Shown here in pieces: positions 5,898 through 61,004 of a DNA stretch of 64,000 nt. The stretch is from Candidatus Zixiibacteriota bacterium (GTDB taxonomy: Bacteria; Zixibacteria; MSB-5A5; GN15; FEB-12). Within the stretch, counting starts at the first letter, position 1. Each line of letters begins with the position of its first letter. Where the stretch lies: the NCBI GenBank assembly GCA_040752815.1, contig JBFMGC010000001.1, positions 16,449-80,448 of the forward strand. The letters are read 5' to 3'. Below the pieces are notes generated by a model. It ran no database searches. It saw nothing but the letters and a program-made list of their open reading frames with translations, and had not been told where the DNA came from. Position numbers and translations under genes: made by a program.

Positions 5898-6974
5898 CTA
5901 CAAACAATCCGGCAATCCCAGTGTCGCCCCAGTAATAAACAGATAGTCAATCAGGTAGGTCACATCCCCGATAGACAGATCCGTTAACTGCGGGTTCTGG
6001 CCGCCGGACTGGTTGACATCGGCCTCGGCCACGCACGGGATAAACTCCGGCTGCTGCGATATGAATAACACGTCGATGATGGTCGTTATGTCGCCGATAG
6101 TCGGTTCGTCGCCGCCCTCACCGTTAGCGTCACCCACCCGCCCCATACAACAGTCGGAGTCGCAGGCGTCGCCGACCCCATCGGAGTCCTCATCCTCCTG
6201 CCCCGGGTTCGATACAAAGGGACAGTTGTCCAAGGTGCACGTTGTGGCCGCATAACCCGGATTGCCGAAACCGTCCTGGTCGGTGTCCGTACATTCATCG
6301 CAATCGTCGCCGACAGCGTCATTATCCGCGTCAGCCTGACTTGGATTGAACAGGCCTGGACAGTTGTCCCAGGTGTCGCCGACCCCGTCGCCGTCACCGT
6401 CAGGACCAGCATTAACACACTCCTGGCCGCGCCAGTTGACACTGTACTCGCCGGCATCGGGATCGACAAACGACGCACGCACAAAATCGGCTGAGTCGAT
6501 ACAGAACGATTCGCCACCGGCCCACCCCGAAATGGTGAAATAGTAGGTGACAATCAACTTGGGCGAGGACGACGCCACGAGCGCTCCCGACGGAAGCCCG
6601 CCACCGGTGCACTGAAACAGGCGGCGAGTATTGGTGCTATCACGATTCCCCTTGAAGTCAACAATCCGAAACAACGAGAAGGCTGCCGAGGCAGCCGGAG
6701 AGAACACGGCGGAGTCAAAGCTGAAGCGATCGCTGTCCCACGAAAGACCTAACGACGCACCCACTACCGGCTGGGCATCATTGAAAAAATACACGGCGAC
6801 TGCTGCGACCGAGTCCACTCCGAGGCGAGGCTGAGATATCGCTGCGAAAATCGAGTCCGGTGCGCCGAGATCGCGCGGGTCCTGGGCCGACGCTCCTTGT
6901 GCCACTGACAAACAAATGACTGTGACCAGCATGGCGGAGAAAATCAGGGTAAATCGAGAAGTCGGATGCTGCAT
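5898..6974 (-). CDS. Secreted protein: cohesin-like domain, thrombospondin type-3 Ca-binding repeats, dockerin-like C-terminal module
   Basis: Signal peptide [34 protein letters not shown]3 repeats [35 protein letters not shown] and [25 protein letters not shown]-terminal module [60 protein letters not shown] at 5901-6152. Confidence 0.8.
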
Positions 6975-8934: not shown

Positions 8935-9792
8935 TTATTTAACGAGCATCATTTTGCGCGTCGCTGTACCGCCATCGTGGCTTAGGCGGTAGAAGTAGAT
9001 GCCCGATGGCAGCTTACCGCCGTCGAATTCGTACGTGTAGACGCCCGGATCACGGTGCCCTTCAAAAAGCAGTGCAACTTCCTGTCCCAAAATGTTGAAG
9101 ACCTGGAGCCGTACGCTTCCCGCCCGAGGCAATGCGTAGCGAATAATAGTAGTCGGGTTGAACGGGTTGGGGTAGTTCTGATCGAGAGCGAACTCAGTCG
9201 GCAGCAGGCCGTTGCCGGTCTCATCGTCAACCCCGGTGGGCAGCAGCACTTCAACATAGCCCGGAGTGAAATCCGGCAGGTAGACTCCGGTGCCGGTGTT
9301 ATCGGCAACATCGATTCGGGTGTAAATGTGGATATTGCTGCCCAGTAAGCTGTCGGCGTAAATCGAATCGATCGCCACCCGCTGAGGAGTGGCCGACGTT
9401 GCCACCCTGAAATGCAGCACCGCCACGATGCCGTTGGTGAAGCTGAGCGACGGCAGAGGGTAGACCATGTCGTTGGGTAGCACGGTTATTCGCGCGGTAC
9501 GCGCCGTGTTGTCGATCACATAATACCCGGAGAAGTCGGGACTCCAGATCGTACCCCCCAGAGATACGGAATCAAGCGTGAGCGCGGAACTGGAGAACTT
9601 GAGCGGCAGGGTGATCGCGGAAATGGCGATGTCGTTGTTTCGCAGCCAGACATTAACGGCCACGGACTCGGTCGGCTTGGCCCGGGCCGAGTCGACTGTG
9701 ACCACTCCGTTATACGGCAGTTGGGCGACCACAGCGTCCGTGATCCCGAGAGTTAGGGCGAAGACGATTATTGCCGTTAGCGTTCTTCTCAT
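8935..9792 (-). CDS. Secreted cohesin-like domain protein with T9SS (Por) C-terminal sorting domain
   Basis: C-terminus NYPNPFNPTTIIRYALPRAGSVRLQVFNILGQEVALLFEG..GIYFYRLSHDGGTATRKMMLVK is a classic T9SS CTD. N-terminal domain VVTVDSARAKPTESVAVNVWLRNNDIAISAITLPLKFSSSALTLDSVSLGG..NGIVAVLHFRV shows a cohesin-like pattern. Start ATG 9792 (MRRTLTAIIVFALTL) follows GGAAAGAG. Confidence 0.8.
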   Translation of the reverse strand: MRRTLTAIIVFALTLGITDAVVAQLPYNGVVTVDSARAKPTESVAVNVWLRNNDIAISAITLPLKFSSSALTLDSVSLGGTIWSPDFSGYYVIDNTARTARITVLPNDMVYPLPSLSFTNGIVAVLHFRVATSATPQRVAIDSIYADSLLGSNIHIYTRIDVADNTGTGVYLPDFTPGYVEVLLPTGVDDETGNGLLPTEFALDQNYPNPFNPTTIIRYALPRAGSVRLQVFNILGQEVALLFEGHRDPGVYTYEFDGGKLPSGIYFYRLSHDGGTATRKMMLVK

Positions 9793-10076
9793 ACTCTTTC
9801 CTTTCGCAACGCAGCAGGGCTTGCTTTGATGCCACCGACCGACCATCCACAACTCGGCCTGACTGGCTTTGCGCAAAGCCCGTGCCGCGCCCGACCACGC
9901 AGCGAGACCGGTCCGACGCTTCGTCAGAGGCCACGACCAACCCGCCTAACCGCCTGAAACAAGGCGGCTTAGACCGAGGCGCGAAACTCTGTACGAGCCT
10001 TGATCAACGCGCTTTAATATACGGCCTTGCGACAGAAATAGGCAGAGATTTTCTCACCTGCCTGGCCGCTGCGAGA

Positions 10077-11549
10077 CTATTCCGCCCGAACATTCACGAA
10101 AAGAGTCTGTCCAAAGCGCCAGACGAGAAGGACGACTTCTGACGGCCCGCCCGCTTCGAGCGCAGTCATCGCCGCTGCGAAATCACCCACTGATGCGACT
10201 TCCTGATCGTTGACGCGCTGGATGACATCGCCAGGCGACAGCCCGGATACGTCGGCCCGCCCGCCGAGCTGCAGCTTGGTCACGACTACGCCGGTGAGAG
10301 ATTGCTGCTCGACATTGTAACCGACATAGTCGGAAAACACGAGGTCGCGCACTGTCAGTTCGAACGGTTTGTATTCGAAATCAGCGGCATCGGCGGCCGC
10401 CAGCGGGGCCGCAGCAAGCACCGCGAGAACGGTAAGCGTATCGAGTCGGTCGTTGTCCGGGCGAATGACGGTTAATTCAACCGGCGCGCCGACTCCTATG
10501 TTGGCGACCTCTCTCTGAAACACCGAAAGCTCTTCCTCACGATCGACCTCGACCCGTCGCCCGTTGACAGCGTAGATTATGTCGCCGACACCCAGCCCGC
10601 AGGCAGCCGCTGGGGAGCCAGGTACAACTTCGTTGACTATGATCCCACCCGGTGAGCCGAGCCGGAGGAAATCAGCAATGTCCTGGGTGAGCGCCTGCAT
10701 GGTGATGCCGAGCCACGAGCGGGCGGCCTGCCCGCGACGGGGTGGATTGGCAATCAGAGGTCTTAATCGTTCAGCAGTGACCACTCCAAACAGGGGAATC
10801 TCCATGCGGTCGAAAGATTCCATCCGGCCGGGATCGGAGGAGCGTCCCGAGGGGTCGTCCAGACGCCCCAGCAGTCCCACCGGGTTGAGACGTTCATCGA
10901 AGAGCACTGATCCAAGTTCGAGCGGGCTGAAACCGACAATGAGCGGGAATACCTCCGGGTCGGTGATTACCGATGAGATCATGCCTATGTCCGCCGCGAT
11001 CGGAGGATCGACGAACTCCGGCAACAACGCATGAGTGGCAACCCAACTTCCGACCGGAAACCGGCTCGCAGGCGAAAACTTGACAGGCGAGAACCTGCGG
11101 CCTGCGCCCGTAATCTGCGCGAAGGCCAACCCGGTGTAGGAATCAACTCCTACGTATTCGGCCATGTATTCCTTCTTATCCAGTGTCGTCACCCTGATGC
11201 GCCGGGGCGTGGAGCGGAAGACCATTCCGCCTGTCGGCACAAACGGGTTGGCCTCACTTAGAAAGCCGCCGTCGAAGACAATCAGACCATCCTCGCGCAC
11301 AATCGTACCGAGCAGCCGCTCCTCCTGTTCGTTAACTTCGGTCCCAAACGAATACTCCACCTGGATGGTCAGGATGACCGTGTACGGAACTATGCGCTGC
11401 TGCAAACGGGCAAAATCAAACGACTGAGCGTACGACTCGGGGGCCAACAGCAATCCCACGCCACACGCAAGGGCAACGGCGCTGGTAACCATCGATACTG
11501 GACTTGATGACACATTACTCATTGGTTTGCTCCGCGCCGGCGAGTTCAA
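10077..11549 (-). CDS. HtrA-like periplasmic protein with two PDZ domains and a degenerate (probably inactive) protease domain
   Basis: PDZ 1: SWLGITMQALTQDIADFLRLGSPGGIIVNEVVPGSPAA; PDZ 2: TGVVVTKLQLGGRADVSGLSPGDVIQRVND. The trypsin-fold region lacks the His (TIVREDGLIVFDGGFL), the Asp (TGLAFAQI) and the GNSGGP motif (ELGSVLFDERL). The start is uncertain: TTG 11549, ATG 11522 or ATG 11492. Confidence 0.7.
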   Translation of the reverse strand: MNSPARSKPMSNVSSSPVSMVTSAVALACGVGLLLAPESYAQSFDFARLQQRIVPYTVILTIQVEYSFGTEVNEQEERLLGTIVREDGLIVFDGGFLSEANPFVPTGGMVFRSTPRRIRVTTLDKKEYMAEYVGVDSYTGLAFAQITGAGRRFSPVKFSPASRFPVGSWVATHALLPEFVDPPIAADIGMISSVITDPEVFPLIVGFSPLELGSVLFDERLNPVGLLGRLDDPSGRSSDPGRMESFDRMEIPLFGVVTAERLRPLIANPPRRGQAARSWLGITMQALTQDIADFLRLGSPGGIIVNEVVPGSPAAACGLGVGDIIYAVNGRRVEVDREEELSVFQREVANIGVGAPVELTVIRPDNDRLDTLTVLAVLAAAPLAAADAADFEYKPFELTVRDLVFSDYVGYNVEQQSLTGVVVTKLQLGGRADVSGLSPGDVIQRVNDQEVASVGDFAAAMTALEAGGPSEVVLLVWRFGQTLFVNVRAE

Positions 11550-12888
11550 GGTTAAGCACGACTATCCGCGTAGCCCCGCTGCGTTTGACAGTCAGCATGA
11601 CTTTGCGGTCGCCGGCCTCGATAAGCTGATTGTATCGAATTACCAGTGAGTCAAGATTCTCAACCGGCTCACGATTGATCGCCTGCAGGACGTCACCCTG
11701 GTTCAGTCCGCCCAGGTCCGCCGGGCCGACCCTCCTGACACCGGTGACAAACACACCGGCCGAATCCCGCAATTGGTGGCTGATCTGCATCTGACGCGTA
11801 ATATCTCGAACCGTAAAGCCCCACTTGGCACACTCGAAATCCTCGCCCTGCAATTGGCCGAGCGGACGGGTCAGCACCGTGACCTGGCGCTCCTGCACGC
11901 CGCGGAGGATCTTGAGCGTGATCGCGGTGCCGGGCGCATGGCTGGCTATGCTGTTGTAGAAAGCGGGAAGTTCCTCAACGAAACGGGCCGAGACCGGTCG
12001 GCCGTCGATCTCGAGTATGATATCGCCGGCCATCAGCGACGCCTCGACAGCGGGCGAACCCGGATCTATCGAGGCAATCAGAACGCCGCGATTGTGGTCG
12101 GTGCCGAAGTAATCTTCCAGCTCCTGGAGGGCCTGAGCGGTAACACCAATCCAGCTCCGCGTGACATGGCCGTCATTCAGAATGGCTTTGGTCACTTCCT
12201 TCACGACGTTTACGGGAATGGCAAAGCCGAGGTTGTTGGCCATGAAAGTAGCGCGCGAGTTGATGCCGATCACACGACCCGATAGATCGACCAGCGGGCC
12301 GCCGGAGTTGCCGAAGTTGATGGCGGCGTCGGTCTGAATCCATAGATTGTAGCGGCCGGTTTTCTCGCCCGACGGAAGCCGGTATTCGCCTGAGAAGTAG
12401 CGGTCCTTGGTAGAGATCACGCCCGCCGAAACCGACCGGGCCAGTGAGAGTGGCGAGCCCATCGCAAGCACTTGCTGGCCAGCCTGGACCGAATCGGAAT
12501 TGCCGAGTACGGCAGCCTCGATCTTTCCCTTGTAATCGTTCAGACGGAGCTTAAGAACGGCTATATCGGTGGCCGGATCGCCCCCGACATAATCGGCCGA
12601 GAGCTGCTCCCGGTTGCTGAGCGTGCAGATAATCCGCTTGGCCTTGCCGGCCACGTGATAGTTCGTAACGACATAACCGTCGGGGTGAAATATCACCCCC
12701 GATCCCACCACCGCCTGTTTCTTCAATTGGCCGGTGCGGTAGTCTTCGACCACCGGCTGGATGTGCACCAGCGCGGGCATGACCCGGTCACGGGCCAGAT
12801 ATACCTGCTCCTGATAGGTGGCTGCAACACCACTCGGTGCGGCAAACAACATTATGCCCACCGGCACAAGCGATAAAACTCGTTTCAT
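11515..12888 (-). CDS. htrA: Periplasmic serine endoprotease HtrA/DegP/DegQ family (protease plus 2 PDZ)
   Basis: Catalytic triad motifs VVTNYHVA, DIAVLKL and GNSGGPLVD, plus two PDZ domains. ATG 12888 follows AAGGAG; N-terminus MKRVLSLVPVGIMLFAAPSGVAA. Confidence 0.92.
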   Translation of the reverse strand: MKRVLSLVPVGIMLFAAPSGVAATYQEQVYLARDRVMPALVHIQPVVEDYRTGQLKKQAVVGSGVIFHPDGYVVTNYHVAGKAKRIICTLSNREQLSADYVGGDPATDIAVLKLRLNDYKGKIEAAVLGNSDSVQAGQQVLAMGSPLSLARSVSAGVISTKDRYFSGEYRLPSGEKTGRYNLWIQTDAAINFGNSGGPLVDLSGRVIGINSRATFMANNLGFAIPVNVVKEVTKAILNDGHVTRSWIGVTAQALQELEDYFGTDHNRGVLIASIDPGSPAVEASLMAGDIILEIDGRPVSARFVEELPAFYNSIASHAPGTAITLKILRGVQERQVTVLTRPLGQLQGEDFECAKWGFTVRDITRQMQISHQLRDSAGVFVTGVRRVGPADLGGLNQGDVLQAINREPVENLDSLVIRYNQLIEAGDRKVMLTVKRSGATRIVVLNLELAGAEQTNE

Positions 12889-13111
12889 CTGACTCCTTGT
12901 CTGGTGGCACGCCCAACACAGTCCTAGAACCACCCAAGCGTAGCCGACCGATCCACGCAGGTCAACAACAGATGTCTCCGGTGTCGGTTCCCGTAGGCTT
13001 TATACACGGATTTGAGCGAAATTGGATAAGCCGGCGCCGCGAGTTCCGCCCGAGCGGACAGGTGAAGCGTTCCCCCCCGAGACACGCACATTTGAGGGGC
13101 CAACCGCGGTA

Positions 13112-13972
13112 CTACCGCTTGGCGTGGATGTCAATCGATCCCATGGCTACGTCGGCGGAAATGACAATGCGATCCGTCGCGGTATCGAAATCTTCCGTCT
13201 CCCAGACCCCGTCCCGGACCTTTTCCAGGTCTATACCGCGGAAACCGATATCGGAGAACCAGTGGTCATCGCCTTCCACCCTCACGGCCGTACCCTTCGA
13301 GACAATCACGTCCATCGAACCCATCCCCACGCTGATATCGAGGCTGACCTCGCCTTTGATGTCCCCGCGAAGGTCGATCTCACAAGAACCGACACCGACA
13401 TCGAATTCCATCAACCGCGCATTTGCGTTGGCAAGACCTGTAATTTCGAGTGCCGACGCGCCGCAATCGACTTTGAAATCGTCAATCTCTTTTGGATTGG
13501 GCGCGGAGAAGTCTATTTCCAGATCGGCGGCGCCGATATCGAGCGAAAATCCGGTCAGGGGAACGCCGCCCAGGTCCATCCTCGCCTCGCACGCGCCGAT
13601 GTCTATTTCGAGCGACACGGGGATTTTTCTTGATAACTGGACGGTCCATTCATTCTCCGAGTCGTCGTCGTCGCCCCAGCCGCGACGGCGCTCGCTTTCC
13701 AGATACACTATACACTTATCGCCTCTGACCGTTTTGTCCACGTCATAGCGAACGGCATCCGGGGTGTAATATATATCGAGCTTCACCAGATCGGTGATGT
13801 CCGCAGGAACGAGAGCGATGGTTCCGGCAGCGAAATCGAGTCGGACCTCCGCCTGGTGGCAGTCATCAGCCGTAACCACCTCAGTGACTCGCTCCGGGCG
13901 GTCCGCATGCACCCAACCCGCGGTTGCCAGACAAAAAGCAGCACTGAGAAACGCCGATTTCAAAGTGACCAT
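13112..13972 (-). CDS. Secreted toastrack-type (DUF2154/DUF4097-like, LiaF C-terminal-like) beta-repeat protein
   Basis: Signal peptide, then repeats LEIDIGACEARMDLGG, LDIGAADLEIDF, VDCGASALEITGL, FDVGVGSCEIDLRGD and LDISVGMGSMDVIV. AAGGAGA lies 7 nt before the ATG. Confidence 0.6.
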   Translation of the reverse strand: MVTLKSAFLSAAFCLATAGWVHADRPERVTEVVTADDCHQAEVRLDFAAGTIALVPADITDLVKLDIYYTPDAVRYDVDKTVRGDKCIVYLESERRRGWGDDDDSENEWTVQLSRKIPVSLEIDIGACEARMDLGGVPLTGFSLDIGAADLEIDFSAPNPKEIDDFKVDCGASALEITGLANANARLMEFDVGVGSCEIDLRGDIKGEVSLDISVGMGSMDVIVSKGTAVRVEGDDHWFSDIGFRGIDLEKVRDGVWETEDFDTATDRIVISADVAMGSIDIHAKR

Positions 13973-14042
13973 TAGCCCATCTCCTTAAACCACAGCACCG
14001 ATGTGTCCATGTTAAGTTTACTGGAGCGGGAGGGAATTTGTT

Positions 14043-15365
14043 TCAGTTTTCCGGGGAATCGGGTGGCCCGAATGCTGAGGGATCGGAAGGCATCGGACGG
14101 ATTGGCGGACGGGGCGTACGGGGCTCAACCGGGGGCATGGCCTCCGGCATGGGTGGCGGCGCGGGAGCGGGGGCAGGCTCAGGGTGCCGAGTGGCCGTGG
14201 ACGTTCGCTTCACATACGGCCGACCACCCATCCGGGTCATCACGGCGGCGCCGATTCCGGCCAAAAGCGGGTAGCAGGTTAAAATGATGGATATGACAAG
14301 CAGAAAGACGCTCAGCGCGTCCGCCGCCAGCCAGTGTCCCGAGGCTGCACCCAGCATAAACGCGGTGAGAGTCCAGAGGCCGACATAGAAAGCCACTCCC
14401 GCCAGCGATCCCAGCCAGGTTCCGGGGGCGTGGCGGCCAAGACGTCGCGCTGCGAACGTGTACACCTGCATGCCAACCGCGCACATACCGACCGCGAACG
14501 CCACGAAGTACGCCAGCGGTACGAGCCACACTACGAGCAGACCGACTACGGTGAGGCATACCAGGGTCACGATTATCGGCAAGAGGAATAGGAACAGCAA
14601 CCCCATGAAGCTGGATTTAACCGGGTGGTTCTCGATGCATTCGGTGAAATTGGCCACACGCATGGGCGCCAGGGACAGAGTAAGGAAGGCTATCAGCAGG
14701 ATGCCAATGCTGATTCCGAACACCACCCAGATTCCGGCCATGGAAAAACCGGAGGCAATTACGTCCACCGGAATCTCGTACGTGGGAGTTTCGATCACCC
14801 GGCCGAGGACCACCCCCCCCTCGCGAATCTCCACCTGGGGAGCCTGGACATCGCCGTCGACCTGCCCGGTCGACGCAATCAGCACCGCCTTACTGAATGA
14901 CTGCACCTTCCCTTTGACCCAGCCTTTTACTGTTACCCGGCTATAGGCCACGATGTCGCCGTCGACAAATTCGTCATAGCCAACGTAAACTGCGGTAAGC
15001 GCGGGGTAGTCGACCACCTTCCGCTCGGTGCAGCGCACGGCCACCGGCGGAACGACTTCATCGCGATCGCCGGCTTCCCGGCCCCCGGCCTCGGAACCAG
15101 CCTCGAGGGGAGCAGAAACAAACCGATGTCTCTCAAAATCGTAGGCCCAGCGCCCGCCGGCGCTGTCGTAAGCGATTACGCCCTCGGCAGTCAATTCGAT
15201 TTCGACGAATCTCAGGGCTGATGGAGAGGAAGGCGCCGGGCGCGGCTCAGGCCGGACGTCCACAAATCCGGTGTCACCCGACTCCTGCCCGTACGCGGGC
15301 ATGGCCCCTATCAGTAGGGCAAGCAGCACCGATATGAAAGTGAATTTGCCTGAGCCGGGCCTCAT
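14043..15365 (-). CDS. Membrane protein with periplasmic bactofilin-like (polymer-forming cytoskeletal, DUF583-like) domain, about 5 TM helices and a Pro-rich tail
   Basis: DGDIVAYSRVTVKGWVKGKVQSFSKAVLIASTGQVDGDVQAPQVEIREGGVVLGRV resembles a bactofilin beta-helix. Hydrophobic helices follow. The tail is PEPAPAPAPPPMPEAMPPVEPRTPRPPIRPMP. Confidence 0.55.
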   Translation of the reverse strand: MRPGSGKFTFISVLLALLIGAMPAYGQESGDTGFVDVRPEPRPAPSSPSALRFVEIELTAEGVIAYDSAGGRWAYDFERHRFVSAPLEAGSEAGGREAGDRDEVVPPVAVRCTERKVVDYPALTAVYVGYDEFVDGDIVAYSRVTVKGWVKGKVQSFSKAVLIASTGQVDGDVQAPQVEIREGGVVLGRVIETPTYEIPVDVIASGFSMAGIWVVFGISIGILLIAFLTLSLAPMRVANFTECIENHPVKSSFMGLLFLFLLPIIVTLVCLTVVGLLVVWLVPLAYFVAFAVGMCAVGMQVYTFAARRLGRHAPGTWLGSLAGVAFYVGLWTLTAFMLGAASGHWLAADALSVFLLVISIILTCYPLLAGIGAAVMTRMGGRPYVKRTSTATRHPEPAPAPAPPPMPEAMPPVEPRTPRPPIRPMPSDPSAFGPPDSPEN

Positions 15366-15395
15366 GGTTACACCAGTCCTATGTGTAAACCGAAG

Positions 15396-16367
15396 TCAGA
15401 ACTGTGCTACGGTCACATCACCGGACACCGATGTCAAGTTTATCTTTACGCCGCCGAATCCGAACGTTCCTTCCACCTGTTTGCGCGACATTGACTTTAT
15501 GGTGATGGGTATCTCCGTCTTGATGTCGCCCGTCTGGGATTCTATTCGTAAATCACCCGACGATGTTTCCGGAATAGTCAGTCGGATGTGGCCGCTTTCG
15601 GTGTTGACAAAGTAATCACGGGAGCTGTCCAGGTTGGTCTGAATATCGACATTGCCGGATCCAGTGGTCAGATCGAGCGCCCCCTGGTCCTGGCGTATGC
15701 TGATTGCTGCGCTCGACGATTTCACTCTGATATCGCCCTCGACGAATTTAAGGTCGATCCTGCCCAGCGCCTGGCGAATATCGACCGAGCCGAACAAAAG
15801 CTCGCCGGCCACTGACCCGGAGGAGCTTTCCACGCTCACGCTGCCCTCGATACTTGTTAGCTCGATGTCTGCCGCCGAGCTGCGGACACTAACGTCCCCC
15901 GCTACGTGACTGATTTTCACCGCGCCGTCGGTGTTGACAATGCTCACTCTGGTGCCGACCGGCACGCGGATGGACCAATCGACCTGGCCGAAAGCATCCT
16001 CGCCCCCAGTGCCGAGAACCTTGGTCCAGAAGGTGCGGGATTGATTTCGCATTCGCAGGTAATTGGCGGCCACGGTTACCTTGCGGCCTTTCTGATCCAC
16101 CTTGATCTCGATATGATCGGCAGCGATCTGGGCCTCATCGGAGCTGACCGCGCTAACTCGCTTACGGGCCTCGATGATGAGGCGGTCGTCATCGCTCTGG
16201 GTCAGAAGCAGATTGCCGCTGACATAGGTCAGGGTCAGTTCGGCATCTTGCCCGGTAGACAGAATCTTCTGGTAGTCGAACTGGAATTCCTTGGCCGTCG
16301 ACATCGGTGCCGGTCCGAGAGAAAACGCCAAAAGACTCAGCGCCGCTATGAGCCATCCGTTGCGCAT
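15396..16367 (-). CDS. Secreted DUF4097 (putative adhesin / LiaG-YvlB-like) protein
   Basis: Signal peptide, then repeats typical of DUF4097: VNTDGAVKISHVAGDVSVRSSAADIELTSIEGSVSVESSSGSVAGE..GDIRVKSSSAAISI..GSGNVDIQT..SGDVTV. Confidence 0.7.
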   Translation of the reverse strand: MRNGWLIAALSLLAFSLGPAPMSTAKEFQFDYQKILSTGQDAELTLTYVSGNLLLTQSDDDRLIIEARKRVSAVSSDEAQIAADHIEIKVDQKGRKVTVAANYLRMRNQSRTFWTKVLGTGGEDAFGQVDWSIRVPVGTRVSIVNTDGAVKISHVAGDVSVRSSAADIELTSIEGSVSVESSSGSVAGELLFGSVDIRQALGRIDLKFVEGDIRVKSSSAAISIRQDQGALDLTTGSGNVDIQTNLDSSRDYFVNTESGHIRLTIPETSSGDLRIESQTGDIKTEIPITIKSMSRKQVEGTFGFGGVKINLTSVSGDVTVAQF

Positions 16368-16395
16368 ATGCTCGTCCTCGCCGGACCGGGATCGG

Positions 16396-16959
16396 CTAAA
16401 TGTTCTTGAGTTTCCGCTTTAGAAGCTCCCGCGCCCTGAAAATGCGGGCTTTGACCGTCCCGACCGGTATAACCAGTAAATCGGCTATTTCCTCGTAGGA
16501 TTTATCGTCCTTGTGCCGATAGATAATGACTTCCCGGTACTTGGGCGGTAGGGAATCAATCGCCTCGTCTATCGAAAAGCGCTGCTGCTTGCGGACCAGC
16601 TCCAGCTCGGGGTTGTGGGTGTCGTCCGGGACCTCTATTTCCATCCGGCCGTCGCCGGTTTCCACAGGGGAATCCAGAGACAGCGCCTGTATGCGCCGTT
16701 TGCGAAGGTAATCGATCGAGGAGTTGGCCGCAATTTTGTAAAGCCAGGTGGAAAAACGGTACTCCGAGCGGTAGGAGCCCAGCGAGGCGAAGGCCTTCAT
16801 AAAGGTTTCCTGGGCCAGGTCGCGCGCGGCTTCATCGTTGTGAACGATACGATTTATGATATGAAAAATCGCGGCCCGGTGGGTATCGACCAGTTGCGCA
16901 CAGGCCTTCTGGTCTCCCTTCAAAGCGGCGGCAATGAGCGCTGATTCGTCCTCGATCAA
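16396..16959 (-). CDS. ECF (group IV) RNA polymerase sigma factor
   Basis: Region 2: AARDLAQETFMKAFASLGSYRSEYRFSTWLYKIAANSSIDYLRKRR. Region 4: LPPKYREVIIYRHKDDKSYEEIADLLVIPVGTVKARIFRARELLKRKL. Start placed at TTG 16959 behind GAGGAAGGA. The ORF-track start (17046) coincides with the -35 box of the promoter listed below. Confidence 0.9.
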   Translation of the reverse strand: MIEDESALIAAALKGDQKACAQLVDTHRAAIFHIINRIVHNDEAARDLAQETFMKAFASLGSYRSEYRFSTWLYKIAANSSIDYLRKRRIQALSLDSPVETGDGRMEIEVPDDTHNPELELVRKQQRFSIDEAIDSLPPKYREVIIYRHKDDKSYEEIADLLVIPVGTVKARIFRARELLKRKLKNI

Positions 16960-17017
16960 TCCTTCCTCTTTCGAAACCGACCGTAACTCGCTGTGTGATC
17001 GGGTACCATAATTTAAT

Positions 17018-17046
17018 AGTATAGTAGTCTTGGGGCCGGTTGGCAA
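17018..17046 (-). promoter_or_regulatory. Sigma70-type promoter of the ECF sigma operon
   Basis: On the minus strand: TTGCCA (17046-17041), a 17-nt spacer, TATACT (17023-17018). Confidence 0.5.
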
Positions 17047-20722: not shown

Positions 20723-23011
20723 TCACAAGCACGCCGGCAGGCCGAGCTCGGGGCCGGTAATAAACAGGTAGTCGATCAAGATGGTGACATCACCGATCGA
20801 GACATCCAGCGGCGACGGCAACGCCCCGCCGGATTGATTGACGTCGGCCTCGGCCAGACACGGGGGCTGGGTCCCGGAGATGAACAGCATATCGATGAGG
20901 AGAGTGACGTCGCCGATTGTCGGCTCGTCTCCGCCCTCGCCGTTGGCATCCCCCACACGACCCGAGCAGCACGATACGTAAACACTGCCGTCGCTCGTCT
21001 CGGGGGTATAGTCGCCTGCGTAGGTAGTCAGCCAGAGACTCTGGCCCGCATAGCTGGTAAAGACAATCGGACTGCTGCCCGACACCGCCGAGCCGAGATC
21101 GGTGAAAAACAGCGACACAATCGAACCGCTTCCGGCCGCAAGCGGCGGCTCATTGCCTGCCCCGAGAAACAGGGTCGCCGACTTGGTGGCGGGCACGTAG
21201 CTGACGATAGATTTTATGTCGAAAAACTCGGTCCGGTGGCCCACAATGGAAATGGAATCGAATCTGAGATTGAACGGGCCGGCCCAACTGAAGGGAATTC
21301 TCACCTCAGTCAGCGCCAGGTAATTGGTGGCGCTTAGGTCGATTCTTGCCCGGTTATTGACAAGGGGGGCATCACTCATGCGCAGCGTGTCGGCGAACGC
21401 CGAGATCATGCCGTCGAATGTGCGACGGTACGTTCGCTCGGGTGTGGTTACGCTGACCGTCACGCTAAAATAGCCCGGCATGTCGTACATATGCTGGGGA
21501 TGTTGCTCCGTCGACGTAGCGCCGTCGCCGAACTCCCAGAACCAGCCGATGCCATTTAGAGAATAATCTGTGAACTGAACCGCCAGCGGGATCGGCCCGA
21601 AAGTGCTGTCGGCGGCTATGTCAACAAACGGCGGATTCGTGTTCCCATAGACCAAATTGACCGTGTCCCAGTTGGCTACCGCCAGGTCATTGTGGAACGA
21701 GTACCGGTAGTAGCCGACGGCGCTGATTACCGGCGCCGTCGCGAGCGACAGCCAGCCTGACACAAGGTCGTAACAGTAATCTGCTTCGGACAAAAGCGCG
21801 CCGTCTGTTAGCACCGAGTCTATTTCATACAAAGGGCTATGTTCGGTGTAGAACAGCTTCGTAGAACCGTCGACCACAAAGGTATCGGCAAGCGTAACCA
21901 CCCCAAGCCCGTCTATATCCACCCAGGCCAGCTCCTCGGCCACCATCGAAAGAGCTGACGACCACACCGGCGCCGTAGTAAGGGTCGTACCCAGGTTCTC
22001 ATACACCCACACCTTTTGAAACCAGCGCCCGGCGGCGAGGTCATCGTCGCCGTCATTGTCATAATCGTATAGCGCTAGCGCCGAGCCGTAACCGCCGGTG
22101 GAAGACTGCCAGCCGTGCGTGGTGCTCAGGCTCCCGGCACCGTCGTTGAAATACACGCGAAAACGTCCCTGTCCGCCGAGTTGATTGTTGTAAGCTACCA
22201 CCAGGTCGAGCCAGTCATCGCCGTTTATGTCACCGAACATCAGCGTATTGCCGGGTTCGACCGTGGCCGCTTGCCAGGTGGGCGTGGTGGAGATAGCCCC
22301 CGCGTTGTTGTGGAACACGGCGGTAGCTGCGGCGTCAAACGTGAAAGCCAGGTCGAGATCGCCGTCCCGGTCAACATCACCCCAGGCAACATCGAGCGCC
22401 GCCCCCGACGCCGATGACAGCCAGTAGGGACTTCCTCCGAATGATCCCTCATCGTTTAGATAGATGCGCTGCTGCTGGTAATCCTGATTGTACCCCTCGC
22501 CACAGGCAAAAGCGATATCAAGATCGCCGTCGCCGTCAACATCGCCCAGCGCGCAGGAAAATGAGAAGAGCTCATCCGGTGTGAACCAGTCCGGCACGGT
22601 ATGCGGAAAGCCGGTGTTGTTAAGGTACAGATTGCTGCGGTTGGGATCGCCGAAGCCGCTGCCAAGATAGTTGGACACGAAGAGATCCGGAAAGCCGTTG
22701 TCGTCGACATCCCCTACCGCGCAATGCCCGGAGTACTCGAGATCGGCTGAAAACCATGATGCCGAAGCCGGGAAGCTCGAGGTACCGAAGATATATATGG
22801 TGTTGGCCGCCTGGACGATGTCGTTCCCGTTGGAATAGAACACGTCGATAATTCCATCGCGATTGCAGTCCCGCCAGATCATGCCGGTTGAGTAGACGTC
22901 TTGCTCGGCGGAAGACCATATCGGCGTCGTACCGAGTGGGACTTGCGCCGACGTGGAACGGACAACGGGCAGAATCGCGGCGAGGATGATCAAACGGGCG
23001 GCGGAATTCAT
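20723..23011 (-). CDS. Secreted FG-GAP/VCBS-repeat protein with PKD, cohesin-like and dockerin-like C-terminal modules
   Basis: FG-GAP repeats: DCNRDGIIDVF, GDVDDNGFPDLFV, GDVDGDGDLDIAF, GDVDRDGDLDLAF, GDINGDDWLDLVV, YDYDNDGDDDLAA. PKD: WEFGDGATSTEQHPQHMYDMPGYFSVTVSV. Cohesin-like: VRIPFSWAGPFNLRFDSISI. Dockerin-like module at 20726-20971. Confidence 0.85.
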   Translation of the reverse strand: MNSAARLIILAAILPVVRSTSAQVPLGTTPIWSSAEQDVYSTGMIWRDCNRDGIIDVFYSNGNDIVQAANTIYIFGTSSFPASASWFSADLEYSGHCAVGDVDDNGFPDLFVSNYLGSGFGDPNRSNLYLNNTGFPHTVPDWFTPDELFSFSCALGDVDGDGDLDIAFACGEGYNQDYQQQRIYLNDEGSFGGSPYWLSSASGAALDVAWGDVDRDGDLDLAFTFDAAATAVFHNNAGAISTTPTWQAATVEPGNTLMFGDINGDDWLDLVVAYNNQLGGQGRFRVYFNDGAGSLSTTHGWQSSTGGYGSALALYDYDNDGDDDLAAGRWFQKVWVYENLGTTLTTAPVWSSALSMVAEELAWVDIDGLGVVTLADTFVVDGSTKLFYTEHSPLYEIDSVLTDGALLSEADYCYDLVSGWLSLATAPVISAVGYYRYSFHNDLAVANWDTVNLVYGNTNPPFVDIAADSTFGPIPLAVQFTDYSLNGIGWFWEFGDGATSTEQHPQHMYDMPGYFSVTVSVTTPERTYRRTFDGMISAFADTLRMSDAPLVNNRARIDLSATNYLALTEVRIPFSWAGPFNLRFDSISIVGHRTEFFDIKSIVSYVPATKSATLFLGAGNEPPLAAGSGSIVSLFFTDLGSAVSGSSPIVFTSYAGQSLWLTTYAGDYTPETSDGSVYVSCCSGRVGDANGEGGDEPTIGDVTLLIDMLFISGTQPPCLAEADVNQSGGALPSPLDVSIGDVTILIDYLFITGPELGLPACL

Positions 23012-23128: not shown

Positions 23129-25528
23129 TCAGGGACAGGTTGGTAATATCAGCGACGGTCCGGTGACAAACAAATAGTCGATCAGTATGGTCGCATCCAC
23201 AATTGAGACATCCTCCGACACCGGGTCGGCCCCGCCCGACTGGTTGACATCAGCCTCAGTCAGGCACGCGACCGGTTCCTGGGTGATGAACAGATAGTCC
23301 ACCAGGCGGGTCACATCGGCAATTGTCGGCACGTCCCCTCCGTCGCCGTCAACATCGCCCACAATTCCGATACAGCAGCCAAGACGAATCGAGCCTGATG
23401 TTGTCGCTGTCACGTACTCATAGGTGTCGGCGCGAAAACTGGGGGCGTAACTGCCATACGTGACAAATGTAACCGGATTGGTCGCGGTACCGAACTGAAG
23501 AGGTACCCTGAACCACAGACTGACCACCGGACCGCTCCCCGGCGCCAGGGCCGGCTCCTGTTCCGTGTTGGGTGTTCTGAGCGAGATGGTCGCCCGTTTC
23601 TGGGCCAGGGCAATGCTGATGATACTCTGTGTGGGGAAATACGACGTTCTAAGGCCGGCGGTGGAAAACGAGTCAAAAGACATTCCCAGTGGACCGTCCC
23701 ACGAGAACGGGACTTCAATCTGGTTTACCGGCAGAAAATTGCGGGCGTAGACATCCATGCGCACGCGTGAGCCGGCCTGGACCTGTATGTTTGGCAGGGC
23801 CAGTGAGTCAGAGTGGGCCAAAACCATACCGGGAATTGTACGAGTGAACTGACCCTCCTCGGTGCCAATGGTAAGCGAAACGTTGTATATCCCGGGATCA
23901 GCATACTCATGGGCAGGGGTGGAATCGTCGGACAAGGCCCCATCGCCAAAGTCCCAGGTCAGCGCCGAAGCCGGCAGCAAAGATGAATTCGCGAAAGTGA
24001 CTGTAAGCGGTGCCTGTCCGCGCGTGGTATCCGCCGAGAACGCCACCGGCCAGGTGAGGGCCTTGCCCAGGTCGATGGTCCCCCAGCCGTAGGAGTTATC
24101 GGGACTGGCCGCCCGCGTTGCGGTGGCTTTGAGCGCCTCGCGCACCTGGCGGGCGGTAAGTTCAGGGCGGGCTTCGATTAAAAGGCAAGCCGCCCCGGCA
24201 ATCAGAGGTGCCGACAGTGACGTGCCGCTGGCGTAGGCGTAACTCTGATCCCCGGATGCCGACGCGCCGTAAGTATCCACACCCAGCGCGCACACCTCGG
24301 GTTTGATACGGCCGTCGAAAGTCGGCCCGCGCGACGAAAACGACGCTACAAAGCCACTGGTGTTCACCGCACCGGCGGCCAGAATGTCAAACGCGTCAGC
24401 GGGCGCCGAAATCGTGCCAGGCAAATACCCGGCGTTGCCGGCAGAAACCACCAGCACGATACCGAGCGCGTCGCAGGTGTTGGCCGCGAGCGTAATCACC
24501 GCCGTGCGACCGTCCATGTCGGAGTAAGTGTACCAGTCGGAATAACCGAGCGAAGTGGAGATTACATCGGTCCCGATCGAGTCCGCGAACTCCAATGCGG
24601 CGACCCAGTTGTCTTCCTCCACCTGAGTCTCATCGGTAATATCCTCCGTCTTGCACAGAATGAAATCAGCGCCGTAGGCGGGGCCAATCAGCCTCCCTGG
24701 CGCGTAGCCGCCCGCCACCGACCAGGTCAGCGTGCCGTGATTCCACTGATTGGGCGAATCGCCCGGTTCCATGGAAGTGTTCGGGTCGTTCATCACGAAA
24801 TCGTATTCCGCGAGCACTCGCCCCGCAGCGACAGCGCCCGCTACCGCCGCGTGGGTCTTGCGATAACCGGTATCGGTCATTGTGAGCGCCACGCCCCGGC
24901 CCGTCAAACCCTGCGCATGAGCGGTCGCTACGTTTATCTGGTATATCTGCGCCTGGGACTGGCCATAGTCCAGTGCGTCCCCGGACATCGTGCCGCCTTG
25001 CGGGCCGGGGCGCTCATCCTCCCCAACCTCGAAAGGCCGTCGGAAGACAGCCACCGGTCGTACCTCGGCCACCATGGGAAGGGCCGCAAGGTCGGCCAGT
25101 CGGTCTATGGAAATATCAAAAGATGCGGCGTTGAGCCAACGGGACACACGGCGCACCGTGCCGCCAAGTGCCAAGACCTGACTTACATAGCTTGCCGAGA
25201 GGGGAAGATCGGCGAACTGCACGTCGGCCGCGCCCAAACGCATGCGACGACTCAAAGCGCGATCGGTTAAACGTACTCTCTTGGCCGCCGACAAAAACTC
25301 CGCGTGCGTCCAAACCCCCTTATCCGTAAAGAAAACCCAGACACGCGCAGTATCTTCATCGCGCCCCGCGAGGTACGAGAGGACTCTCTCGGGCACAAAC
25401 CCAGAGGCTTTTTGGCGGACAAATACTGTTTCTCCAGCTACGCCAGTCACGATTCCCCCGAGAATTACCGAGCAGGAGGCTAATATTGAGGTTACGGCGG
25501 TTAAGTGATGTCGACGCGGTAAGTACAT
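23129..25528 (-). CDS. Secreted subtilisin-family (S8) serine protease with PKD, cohesin-like and dockerin-like C-terminal modules
   Basis: S8 triad motifs MTDTGY (Asp), NHGTLTWSVAGG (His) and SGTSLSAPLIAGAAC (Ser). PKD: WDFGDGALSDDSTPAHEYADPGIYNVSLTI. Cohesin-like: IEVPFSWDGPLGMSFDSFST. Dockerin-like module at 23132-23377. Start ATG 25528 (MYLPRRHH..). Confidence 0.9.
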   Translation of the reverse strand: MYLPRRHHLTAVTSILASCSVILGGIVTGVAGETVFVRQKASGFVPERVLSYLAGRDEDTARVWVFFTDKGVWTHAEFLSAAKRVRLTDRALSRRMRLGAADVQFADLPLSASYVSQVLALGGTVRRVSRWLNAASFDISIDRLADLAALPMVAEVRPVAVFRRPFEVGEDERPGPQGGTMSGDALDYGQSQAQIYQINVATAHAQGLTGRGVALTMTDTGYRKTHAAVAGAVAAGRVLAEYDFVMNDPNTSMEPGDSPNQWNHGTLTWSVAGGYAPGRLIGPAYGADFILCKTEDITDETQVEEDNWVAALEFADSIGTDVISTSLGYSDWYTYSDMDGRTAVITLAANTCDALGIVLVVSAGNAGYLPGTISAPADAFDILAAGAVNTSGFVASFSSRGPTFDGRIKPEVCALGVDTYGASASGDQSYAYASGTSLSAPLIAGAACLLIEARPELTARQVREALKATATRAASPDNSYGWGTIDLGKALTWPVAFSADTTRGQAPLTVTFANSSLLPASALTWDFGDGALSDDSTPAHEYADPGIYNVSLTIGTEEGQFTRTIPGMVLAHSDSLALPNIQVQAGSRVRMDVYARNFLPVNQIEVPFSWDGPLGMSFDSFSTAGLRTSYFPTQSIISIALAQKRATISLRTPNTEQEPALAPGSGPVVSLWFRVPLQFGTATNPVTFVTYGSYAPSFRADTYEYVTATTSGSIRLGCCIGIVGDVDGDGGDVPTIADVTRLVDYLFITQEPVACLTEADVNQSGGADPVSEDVSIVDATILIDYLFVTGPSLILPTCP

Positions 25529-25622
25529 TTGCTTTCGATGCTCGGGAGTCCTATGTCTGCCAGCCCGCACTCGCCTACTTCAAGAAAACCGAGCCCGCTC
25601 AATTGTCAAGAAATATTCCTAA

Positions 25623-55252: not shown

Positions 55253-57088
55253 ATGCATAAACGCCTGTTTTGGTTATCTGCTGTTATCGCTGTTTTCGCT
55301 CTTGCCAATCCCGGCAACGCCGCCCAGAGCGAGCAGTACTGGCAACTCGTGTTTCGCTACACGAGCTCTGATCTACAGCTAGTCAAGGCCGACCCGATCG
55401 CTCAAATAGAAAAAGAAATCAGAACTCCCGGGCTGGAATCAGCGGCAATTCGAGTAGGCTACCGTTGCGAGTGGCTGGATAACGCAGGTCGACCCGTGTT
55501 CGTTTCGTCCACGGAGATGCCAGTCGGCATTCGCGTACCCCTGGGCGATTCCCTGCCCTGCCAATGGCTGGTACCTGAAGAGGGAATCATAGTCGTGCGG
55601 ACAACCGGACCTGATCCGAAAGCGAATTCGGAGAGCATCAGGCTGACGCAGACGGGCATAGTCAACCGCGCACGACCGGCGATAAGTCTCCCCGCGCCGT
55701 TTCTCCAAACCGAGGTCTCGGTGAGTGTTGCGTCGGCGACGCGAACCGCCGCCCTGGCGCCGGGGCCGGTGGGAGTTCAGAAGATCAGAGACACCGGCCC
55801 GGACGCCAATCGTCTGGTCATGGTTATCATGGGCGACGGTTACACGGCGGCTGATCTGAGCGGGGGCGCGTTTTCGGGCGCGGCCGCATCGCTGGGAGCG
55901 GCTTTCGAGTCCAAGCCGCCATGGGATGTTTTGTTCGCCGCGACTAATCTGTACCGTATCGATATCGAGAGCAACGAGCAGGGCGCCGACCACGAGGTGT
56001 TCGGTGTTCTCAAAGATACCTATTTGAATTCATCGTTCTGGATCAACGGCATCGAGCGCCTGCTGTCGCTGACCGGGGACGGCTACTTCAAGGCGATTCA
56101 AGCATCTGACAATTTGGTCGGGCCGGGTGTCTGGGATCTTATCCTGGTACTGGTGAACTCGACCAAGTACGGCGGTTCCGGCGGTGGGATTGCGGTTTCA
56201 TCGGTGCACTCGGCCGCGGCAGAGATCGTCATACATGAAGTTGGCCACACTTTTGCCAACCTGGCTGACGAATACGAAACCGCATATCCGGGGTATCCGC
56301 CGGGCGACAGCGAGCCGAATGTTGATTTCGATTACGACGGTCCCGGCCTCAAGTGGCTGATCTGGGTCGAACCGGGCACGCCGCTGCCGACACCTGAGTC
56401 GTCGCCATATCTGACCACGGTGGGTACTTTTGAAGGTGCCCGTTACTTGTCGAGCGGCATCTATCGACCGTGGTATAACTGCGAGATGCGTTCGCTTAAT
56501 CGGCCGTTCTGCCCGATCTGCCAGGAGGCTCACGTGCTTGATTTCACCGGCATGGTTTCCCTGACCGACCTGGTCGCACCGCCCGTCGGTACGAATCAGA
56601 ATATCGACGAAGGCGGAACGCTGTTCGCCGTTACTCCGATTCCGTTGTCAGATCTCGAATACGAGTGGTTTCTTGACGGGGTCCCGATACCGGCAGGCGT
56701 GGGGCCGTCGCTGTCACTCACTCCCGACATGATGGCCGAGCATAATCAGACCCTGCAGCTTAATATCGTGCTGAACACGCCCCTGGTCCGAAAGACGACT
56801 GTCACGCGAAGTTACCTCTGGCCGGTAACGACAGAGGTCAGTCTTTGTTGCACTGGCGTAGTCGGCGACGCCAATTACGACGGCGCATACGATCCAACCA
56901 TCGGCGACATTACGGCCATCATAGATCATCTCTTCGTGAGCGGCACCCCTCTGGCCTGTTACGAGGAAGCCGATGTCAACCAGTCGGGAGGCACGTCGCC
57001 AGGTTCGACCGATATAACGATTGGAGACATTACCATTCTGATCGACAATCTCTTCATCACCGGGGTCACTTTGCCCGCTTGTTTCTGA
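55253..57088 (+). CDS. Secreted M64-like (IgA-peptidase family) zinc metallopeptidase with dockerin-like C-terminal module
   Basis: VLVNSTKYGGSGGGIAVSS..AAEIVIHEVGHTFANLADEY (HExxH in M64 context). Signal peptide present. Module [60 protein letters not shown] at 56846-57085. Confidence 0.8.
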   Translation: MHKRLFWLSAVIAVFALANPGNAAQSEQYWQLVFRYTSSDLQLVKADPIAQIEKEIRTPGLESAAIRVGYRCEWLDNAGRPVFVSSTEMPVGIRVPLGDSLPCQWLVPEEGIIVVRTTGPDPKANSESIRLTQTGIVNRARPAISLPAPFLQTEVSVSVASATRTAALAPGPVGVQKIRDTGPDANRLVMVIMGDGYTAADLSGGAFSGAAASLGAAFESKPPWDVLFAATNLYRIDIESNEQGADHEVFGVLKDTYLNSSFWINGIERLLSLTGDGYFKAIQASDNLVGPGVWDLILVLVNSTKYGGSGGGIAVSSVHSAAAEIVIHEVGHTFANLADEYETAYPGYPPGDSEPNVDFDYDGPGLKWLIWVEPGTPLPTPESSPYLTTVGTFEGARYLSSGIYRPWYNCEMRSLNRPFCPICQEAHVLDFTGMVSLTDLVAPPVGTNQNIDEGGTLFAVTPIPLSDLEYEWFLDGVPIPAGVGPSLSLTPDMMAEHNQTLQLNIVLNTPLVRKTTVTRSYLWPVTTEVSLCCTGVVGDANYDGAYDPTIGDITAIIDHLFVSGTPLACYEEADVNQSGGTSPGSTDITIGDITILIDNLFITGVTLPACF

Positions 57089-60987: not shown

Positions 60988-61004
60988 CACCGGAGAGTGC
61001 TGTT

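Follow-up and report, generated by a model that had tools for sequence, protein, structure and literature searches.

Which protein might receive the dockerin-like modules that end many secreted proteins of Zixibacteria, and could it stand at the cell surface? The question is raised by 64,000 nucleotides (nt) of contig JBFMGC010000001.1 from a Candidatus Zixiibacteriota bacterium (hereafter the window, meaning the whole stretch of DNA analysed). Within it, one gene encodes a protein of 285 aa made of a signal peptide, a cohesin domain, a linker and a type A C-terminal domain (CTD) of the type IX system for protein secretion (T9SS), and four further genes encode proteins with a dockerin-like module at their end (Table 1). 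The original prediction, made from the window itself, saw in the first of these a surface-fixed receptor that would display the other four proteins, and proteases in particular. The reading preferred here, held with a little more confidence than doubt, is that the cohesin-CTD protein is a single cohesin delivered by the T9SS, at which secreted peptidases and adhesins would dock through their variant dockerins. Display of this kind is plausible, though no more than partly supported, and the docking would take place at the surface.

The cohesin domain and the sorting signal

The open reading frame (ORF) of the cohesin-CTD gene begins with an ATG at position 9792 of the window. A longer reading from a TTG codon would extend to 9876; all close homologs, however, begin at the same methionine and have about 285 aa. 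By inspection, the N-terminus consists of MRR, a hydrophobic core and VVA/Q (the slash marks the junction), and in the AlphaFold2 model this region is a helix (residues 2–16) followed by a low-confidence segment. An identical protein is annotated in NCBI as 'T9SS type A sorting domain-containing protein'. The layout given in the original prediction (signal peptide, one domain and T9SS CTD) is correct, because Pfam, NCBIfam (TIGR04183), the AlphaFold2 model with its Foldseek matches, and the family profile agree on it.

The middle domain, which had been described as cohesin-like, is a cohesin by several measures. The Pfam Cohesin family (PF00963) matches residues 31–137 with 28.3 bits, above its gathering threshold of 24.1, and a precomputed assignment to this family is present on many of the orthologs. 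The AlphaFold2 model, built with an alignment of 42 family members, has a mean predicted local distance difference test (pLDDT) of 85, mostly 91–97 in the β-sandwich core (residues 31–130). It consists of an N-terminal helix, the β-sandwich, a disordered linker at residues 188–194 and a second small β-sandwich. When the model is compared with the PDB by Foldseek, the matches ranked 1 to 36 are all cohesins, with a lowest E of 1.6e-10 and target-normalised template modelling (TM) scores of 0.70–0.83 for the single-cohesin entries. Among the top cohesins are 4dh2, 3ul4, 5lxv and 2xdh, which include OlpA (3ul4_A, TM 0.83) and OlpC (4dh2, E 1e-9) of C. thermocellum and the non-cellulosomal cohesin of A. 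fulgidus (2xdh, TM 0.75). A sequence profile of the family also finds a solved cohesin, CohA2 of C. acetobutylicum (6kg8, E 1.6e-5). Hence, the domain as modelled has the nine-stranded β-sandwich that superposes on solved cohesins. Pfam finds neither SLH nor carbohydrate-binding module (CBM) domains in the protein. A homolog search with the cohesin alone returned solely the 285-aa family, and no multi-cohesin scaffoldin with this cohesin subtype at that sensitivity.

The sorting signal is equally distinct. Por_Secre_tail (PF18962) matches residues 207–282 of 285 with 36 bits (gathering threshold 27), so that both domains that the original prediction had named score above their gathering thresholds, and the TIGR04183 score of 44.3 bits exceeds its cut-off of 23. 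The CTD lies at the extreme C-terminus of a protein whose N-terminus has, by inspection, a Sec signal. Among the 33 invariant columns of the family alignment, 25 fall within the CTD or shortly ahead of it, at residue 205 and beyond, and the sorting signal is therefore under strong constraint. The motifs QNYPNPFNP, N..GQ, PSG.YFY and T.KM...K are invariant in the orthologs, which implies a working sorting signal. The linker is conserved in the family with the pattern PTGVDD...LP..F.L.QN, and is the likely place of CTD cleavage. The T9SS has been reported for the Fibrobacteres–Chlorobi–Bacteroidetes (FCB) superphylum (PMC11205867).

Signal peptides ending in A-Q are found in six secreted proteins of the window (genes at 9792, 6974, 23011, 55253, 54999 and 11549), with the junctions VVAQ/L, SAQ/D, SAQ/V, AAQ/S, SAQ/D and YAQ/S. 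These ends resemble the N-terminal-glutamine 'Q-rule', which is described as specific to Bacteroidetes and not as a feature of the whole FCB group (PMC5837995).

Dockerin variants, their carriers and other cohesins

The modules that end four proteins of the window are 80–84 aa long and have a consensus that includes [IV][ST]xLIDxLFI, a later D[IV][ST] and a last C. The AlphaFold2 model of the module from the S8 protein (pLDDT 94, predicted TM score 0.83) contains two repeats, in each of which a lengthened segment resembling a Ca loop leads into a helix (main helices at residues 19–31 and 59–71). Foldseek gives 19 matches with E < 1, every one of them a solved dockerin, with TM scores to target of 0.6–0.8 and root-mean-square deviations (rmsd) of 2–3 Å, the best being 2ccl_B (TM 0.80, rmsd 2.0 Å). 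The module therefore has, as modelled, the duplicated loop-helix fold of solved dockerins. Its alignment shows four invariant cysteines (C1, C2, C38 and C81) and conserved Asp/Asn positions in each repeat (D8, N10 and D21; D43, N45 and D61). We read it as a cysteine-clamped, long-loop variant of the dockerin. Among the relatives, P0124 and P0170 have, after the same cohesin, a canonical-looking dockerin (GDTNGDG..LTDVTFLVNYLF) in place of the cysteine-clamped module, and others, among them P0171 and P0198, have 3–4 module stretches or an N-terminal module.

The variant is abundant in one phylum. A scan of one genome per species gave 164 confirmed stretches, nearly all in metagenome-assembled genomes (MAGs) of Zixibacteria. 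MAG MFD05942.bin.1.404 has at least 50 distinct module ORFs and AUK044 at least 23, these being counts of distinct ORFs in the fetched loci and hence lower bounds. An exhaustive search of 1.84 billion representatives returned 246 clusters with E ≤ 1e-30, a number that rises to 2,797 with E ≤ 1e-3. The module lies within 12 residues of the C-terminus in about 105 of 116 module ORFs; in a few proteins (P0144, P0148, P0166, P0169 and P0171) it is N-terminal or internal. A new C-terminal sorting signal was also considered for the module and ranked low, in view of these N-terminal and internal occurrences and of the dockerin-only fold matches. A T9SS CTD is absent from all 116 dockerin ORFs, and 16 ORFs with a CTD occur in the same loci. 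This mutual exclusion is expected if the dockerin proteins rely on a partner that is itself anchored separately.

The proteins that carry the module are mostly proteolytic and adhesive. In 79 dockerin proteins, Pfam identifies TSP3 (13), PKD (10), FG-GAP (8), β-propellers and β-helices, together with peptidases of the families C1 (5), S8 (4), InhA-like/M6-like (4) and C10, M4, M64, M1 and M43 (2 each). No glycoside hydrolase or CBM is among the 25 commonest Pfam families of these proteins. The system is not a cellulosome: the dockerin-bearing carbohydrate-active enzymes by which one is recognised are not among these commonest families, and the cohesin-CTD protein lacks the CBM or SLH of an anchoring scaffoldin.

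Cohesins are not confined to the cohesin-CTD family. A jackhmmer search seeded with the stretch that separates PKD from dockerin in the S8 protease of the window found 18 dockerin proteins, two of them in the window, in which a cohesin directly precedes the dockerin (the Coh-Doc tandem). The same search reached the cohesin-CTD family at E ~1e-27 to 1e-30, and because it converged on this family the internal segment of the S8 protease is homologous to cohesins. In hhalign, the profile of the cohesin of the cohesin-CTD protein is also matched by the N-terminal domain encoded by 5898–6974 (probability 87%, E 3.9e-6). Pairwise BLASTP of this cohesin with the internal domains of the dockerin proteins is not significant (E 0.11 and 4.5), and only jackhmmer and hhalign linked them.

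Larger proteins also combine a cohesin with a CTD. A 916-aa ORF (L013:2–2749 (+)) has a Pfam Cohesin match of 23 bits, near the threshold, followed by Por_Secre_tail, and directly adjoins a dockerin gene. Both this protein and that of L040:4550–7288 (+) have about 915 aa and close with a T9SS CTD; they lie directly beside dockerin genes, have 700 N-terminal residues without a Pfam family, and may be larger anchors or scaffolds. Another protein (L076:3131–6814 (-)) is an S8 subtilase with five PKD domains and a T9SS CTD at its end. Since the S8 subtilase of the window ends in a Coh-Doc tandem, the same enzyme class takes either ending. At the N-terminus of the latter there is a possible lipobox (..TSILASC..) and no plain signal peptidase I site, and this protein may be a lipoprotein.

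Family, neighbourhood and promoter of the cohesin-CTD gene

More than 100 orthologs of the cohesin-CTD protein are listed, 43–71% identical to it and nearly all of 280–290 aa, and those that are named belong nearly all to Zixibacteria or GN15. It is a phylum-wide family of Zixibacteria kept in fixed synteny. Eight loci were compared (the window, L001, L002/L003, L007 and L082–L085). Upstream of the cohesin-CTD gene the conserved order is an extracytoplasmic function (ECF) sigma factor, DUF4097 (a toast-rack protein, missing in L083), a bactofilin-domain polytopic membrane protein, a toast-rack/LiaF-like protein, HtrA and an HtrA-like PDZ protein, the last being separated from the cohesin-CTD gene by about 285–385 nt in the eight loci. 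This block of six genes, from ECF sigma to the HtrA-like gene, looks like an envelope-stress module. For the protease domain of the second HtrA paralog there is no more than a sub-threshold match (Trypsin_2, 22.3 bits vs 27.6). Downstream there is usually a Ser/Thr kinase that ends in a hydrophobic helix and has almost no extracytoplasmic part, and after it one finds one or more dockerin genes in five of the eight loci. For example, L007 has a 62%-identical ortholog of gene 5898–6974 of the window, and L001 has four dockerin genes in tandem.

An alignment of the orthologous upstream regions revealed a motif of the form GGCA[CT]-N5-TTGC, which was assigned by the -24/-12 consensus of sigma-54. 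All six of the other loci (L001, L002 and L082–L085, at 9895–9917 (+)) have it in the corresponding place, and its distance to the cohesin-CTD gene is 81–106 nt across the seven loci. The background is low, with 4 matches in 577 kb. A sigma-70 scan gave no promoter for the gene, Rfam had no match in the 285-nt gap upstream of it, and no gene for an enhancer-binding protein was seen near it. A hairpin resembling an intrinsic terminator follows the stop codon, and because of this and of the conserved promoter motif the gene looks like a monocistronic transcription unit dependent on sigma-54. Co-transcription with the kinase or HtrA genes was considered and rejected, given the terminator (8907–8878) and the conserved promoter. 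A second conserved element (..CTGC[CG]TAT[AT]T, alignment columns 130–155, about 10035–10055 (-) in the window) is located roughly 150 nt farther upstream than the -24/-12 motif and is preceded by short inverted repeats, e.g., GGCAG-N11-CTGCC in L082. It may be a binding site for an activator.

Elsewhere in the window, a gene adjoining that of the M64 peptidase (54175–54999 (-)) encodes 274 aa with a signal peptide, without a Pfam or NCBIfam family and with an abrupt end (..GGFDFLIAGCPTACGG), and the protein may be truncated. Another gene (60873–61790 (+)) encodes a response-regulator receiver fused to a lipoyl-type domain of the glycine-cleavage H-protein, which is unusual as an output. Upstream of this gene are a PAS histidine kinase (59161–60987) and a weak kinase-like ORF (58148–59164).

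Table 1. Coordinates of the cohesin-CTD gene, its parts and the associated features in the window (position 1 is the first nucleotide of the window)
Feature	Coordinates	Strand	Basis or remark
Cohesin-CTD gene, 285-aa protein (signal peptide, cohesin, linker, T9SS type A CTD)	8935..9792, stop codon included	(-)	ORF, Pfam, NCBIfam, homologs, AlphaFold2, Foldseek
Sec-type signal peptide, aa 1-24 (MRRTLTAIIVFALTLGITDAVVAQ)	9721..9792	(-)	Sequence inspection
Cohesin domain, aa 25-185	9238..9720	(-)	Pfam, Foldseek, family profile
Low-confidence linker (TGVDDETGNGLLPTEFALDQN), likely CTD cleavage region	9175..9237	(-)	pLDDT <50 at aa 188-194
T9SS type A CTD, aa 207-285 (NYPNPFNP ... GIYFYRL ... KMMLVK)	8938..9174	(-)	PF18962, TIGR04183
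Sigma-54-type -24/-12 element GGCACGGGCTTTGC, 81 nt upstream of ATG	9873..9886	(-)	Sole match in the 64-kb window
Hairpin resembling an intrinsic terminator (stem of 13 bp with 9 GC pairs, then a T tail), immediately past the cohesin-CTD stop codon	8878..8907	(-)	
Protein of 358 aa, conserved downstream neighbour: signal peptide, cohesin-like domain (6483-6827), TSP3 repeats, dockerin variant (5901-6152)	5898..6974	(-)	TSP_3, hhalign, L007 ortholog
FG-GAP/PKD protein, 762 aa: internal cohesin (20978-21412), then dockerin variant (20726-20971)	20723..23011	(-)	
S8 subtilase-PKD protein, 813 aa: internal cohesin (23378-23830), then dockerin variant (23132-23377)	23129..25570	(-)	
M64 peptidase, 611 aa: C-terminal dockerin variant (56846-57085), without own cohesin	55253..57088	(+)	
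Ser/Thr kinase, two kinase domains, C-terminal membrane helix	7141..8871	(-)	Between cohesin-CTD and dockerin genes in most loci
Conserved upstream neighbourhood (ECF sigma, DUF4097, bactofilin-domain, Toast_rack_N/LiaF-like, HtrA, HtrA-like PDZ)	10077..17046	(-)	Pfam; same order in L001, L002, L003, L082-L085

Docking, rival explanations and known systems

In the preferred reading, the cohesin-CTD protein would be exported by the Sec pathway, fold in the periplasm and pass the outer membrane through the T9SS by means of its type A CTD. The CTD would then be removed, leaving the cohesin on or close to the cell surface, where it would be retained and would dock the Zixibacteria-specific dockerin variant that ends dozens of secreted proteins per genome. 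Coh-Doc proteins could serve as adaptors that extend the complex. The domain identities, predicted folds, family distribution, synteny and promoter motif, and the finding that dockerin and CTD do not share a protein, are results of the analysis, whereas T9SS export, surface retention and a specific binding of the dockerin variant by this cohesin are inferred. The reading is supported by the recurrence of the cohesin-plus-CTD architecture next to dockerin genes, as in the 916-aa protein of L013. The idea of a protease display, put forward in the original prediction, is in line with the peptidase-rich dockerin repertoire, with its lack of glycoside hydrolases among the commonest families and with the dockerin genes downstream of the cohesin-CTD gene. 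It has to be relaxed on the receptor: because three of the four cargo proteins carry cohesins and larger cohesin-CTD proteins exist, the protein studied here is not the sole candidate.

Several observations weigh against docking at the surface by this protein. No T9SS core gene was found among the window ORFs (no database search with T9SS queries was made), and no SprA-sized ORF is present in about 0.75 Mb of related loci; with no gene of the machinery in the window or in the sampled loci, it is the CTD by itself that argues for export. The invariant CTD motifs and the 16 CTD ORFs of the sampled loci speak indirectly for such machinery in the genome. The literature search found no paper linking Zixibacteria with T9SS, dockerin or cohesin, and T9SS cargo is reported to be possibly released instead of anchored (PMC10202324). 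The dockerin proteins have Sec signals and no CTD, and no route of theirs across the outer membrane is evident. The cohesins embedded in three of the four dockerin proteins of the window (the exception is the M64 peptidase) are alternative partners. Three of the eight loci have no dockerin gene nearby, and the tightest conserved neighbours are the ECF-sigma/HtrA cluster and the kinase, not the dockerin genes. The modules themselves fail Pfam Dockerin_1 (PF00404), the only Pfam family with a sub-threshold match, at best with 17.3 bits against 22.9 and in two cases without any match; NCBIfam gives no match to them, and a profile of 41 modules matches no PDB sequence even at E ≤ 10. Judged by sequence, therefore, they fall outside the curated dockerin family. 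Foldseek E-values are weak (0.04–0.8), which is to be expected of a domain this small. The ligand span is 14 residues in the first repeat and 19 in the second, and not the canonical 12, so that Ca binding is uncertain. The four dockerin-like proteins announced by the original prediction thus exist, with modules that are predicted to have the dockerin fold, but they remain below the Pfam threshold.

In a rival explanation, the dockerins would pair with the cohesins built into the dockerin proteins, in cis or head to tail, and the cohesin-CTD protein would bind some other ligand, in a role tied to its envelope-stress/HtrA neighbourhood and to sigma-54. Such built-in pairing is suggested by the 18 dockerin ORFs with Coh-Doc tandems and by the cohesin-like domain of the neighbour 5898–6974. 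The firmest synteny of the cohesin-CTD gene, found in all loci examined, is with the ECF sigma, DUF4097, LiaF-like, HtrA and kinase genes, and its sigma-54 promoter, a motif with few background matches, is specific to it and not found at dockerin genes. Yet about 98 of the 116 dockerin ORFs have no cohesin of their own and would still need a partner, the cohesin of the cohesin-CTD protein is homologous to the internal ones (jackhmmer E ~1e-27), and a dockerin gene is kept beside it in most of the loci compared. We regard this explanation as unlikely, while giving it some weight.

The lack of a CTD in the dockerin proteins, which have Sec signals and for which no other outer-membrane route was seen, can also be turned into an argument that the cohesin-CTD protein is a carrier, binding folded, disulfide-bonded dockerin-tagged proteins in the periplasm and taking them across by way of the T9SS translocon. 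That these proteins fold in an oxidising compartment before they are exported is suggested by the four invariant cysteines, and the S8 enzymes with either a CTD or a Coh-Doc ending would fit as well. But this is conjecture throughout. One carrier would be consumed with each molecule of cargo, the dockerin proteins might instead leave through a type II system encoded elsewhere in the genome, and to our knowledge no piggyback export is known for the T9SS, which also counts against it. Were this improbable model true, the dockerin would act as an indirect signal for secretion by the T9SS in 50 or more proteins per genome, and the route would be the first of the piggyback type described for this system. 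More doubtful again, and indeed very improbable, is that the module is no ligand of cohesins at all, being instead a sorting, anchoring or stabilising domain held by disulfides and Ca that has no more than the fold in common with dockerins, with the cohesin-like domains as ordinary β-sandwich spacers. Its usual place at the extreme C-terminus, its non-canonical loop lengths, its sub-threshold Pfam score and its lack of sequence matches to solved dockerins would agree with this. A C-terminal sorting signal cannot, though, stand at the N-terminus or inside a protein, as some of these modules do; the fold search gives dockerins only; P0124 and P0170 have a canonical-looking dockerin end after the same upstream cohesin; and cohesins and modules have expanded together in the same genomes.

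Docking of single proteins by a single cohesin is known from OlpA and OlpC of Clostridium (Acetivibrio) thermocellum, which have one cohesin and a surface anchor module and attach single dockerin enzymes to the cell. Their cohesins are among the best structural matches of the cohesin-CTD protein, under PDB names of cellulosome-anchoring proteins, and by analogy they may be its closest functional counterparts. They differ in the anchor, which is an SLH on a Gram-positive wall in one case and a T9SS CTD in a diderm bacterium of the FCB group in the other. The partners differ as well: canonical type I dockerins on glycoside hydrolases for OlpA and OlpC, and, as predicted here, peptidases and adhesin-like proteins whose dockerins are cysteine-clamped and have long loops.

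Of the published ideas, the nearest is the cellulosome-like complex of 'Ca. Stygibacter' (Cloacimonadota), which Williams et al. 2021 inferred in silico only (PMC8542988). Its scaffoldin has 3,755 aa, tandem cohesins, CBM2/CBM3 and a conserved CTD proposed for cell attachment, and its dockerin proteins, whose dockerins are recognised by InterPro, include S8 and C25 peptidases (PMC8542988). The resemblance lies in an FCB-group MAG of a sister phylum, in the combination of cohesin and CTD and in peptidases with a dockerin. The protein of the window, in contrast, has a single cohesin in 285 aa and no CBM, belongs to one phylum-conserved family with fixed synteny and a sigma-54 promoter, and would be paired with dockerins that escape Pfam. 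Non-cellulosomal cohesin and dockerin proteins were surveyed by Peer et al. 2009, as cited in PMC8542988. Such cases (e.g., Archaeoglobus fulgidus, PDB 2xdh) are likewise outside cellulose degradation and sometimes have both modules on the same polypeptide, as in the Coh-Doc tandems of the window, but they are archaeal or scattered singles, with no T9SS link and no genome-wide expansion to 50 or more dockerin proteins. With the T9SS cargo of Porphyromonas and Flavobacterium, the cohesin-CTD protein shares a Sec signal and a CTD of about 80 aa with NYPNPF, GxYxY and K-rich terminal motifs; it differs in its passenger, which is a bare protein-binding module and not an enzyme or adhesin, and in its host, which is outside Bacteroidota.

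If the binding is true, Zixibacteria would have a phylum-wide non-cellulosomal cohesin–dockerin system, made of a T9SS-delivered single cohesin and of a dockerin subtype missed by current domain libraries. The system would also raise a testable question, namely by what route dockerin proteins that lack a T9SS signal get across the outer membrane, and protein engineering would gain a compact orthogonal cohesin/dockerin pair. The system would extend cohesin–dockerin biology well beyond Gram-positive cellulosomes, with a mainly proteolytic and adhesive exoproteome organised on a diderm cell, and would give a handle on protein feeding in an uncultured phylum that is widespread in sediment and soil.

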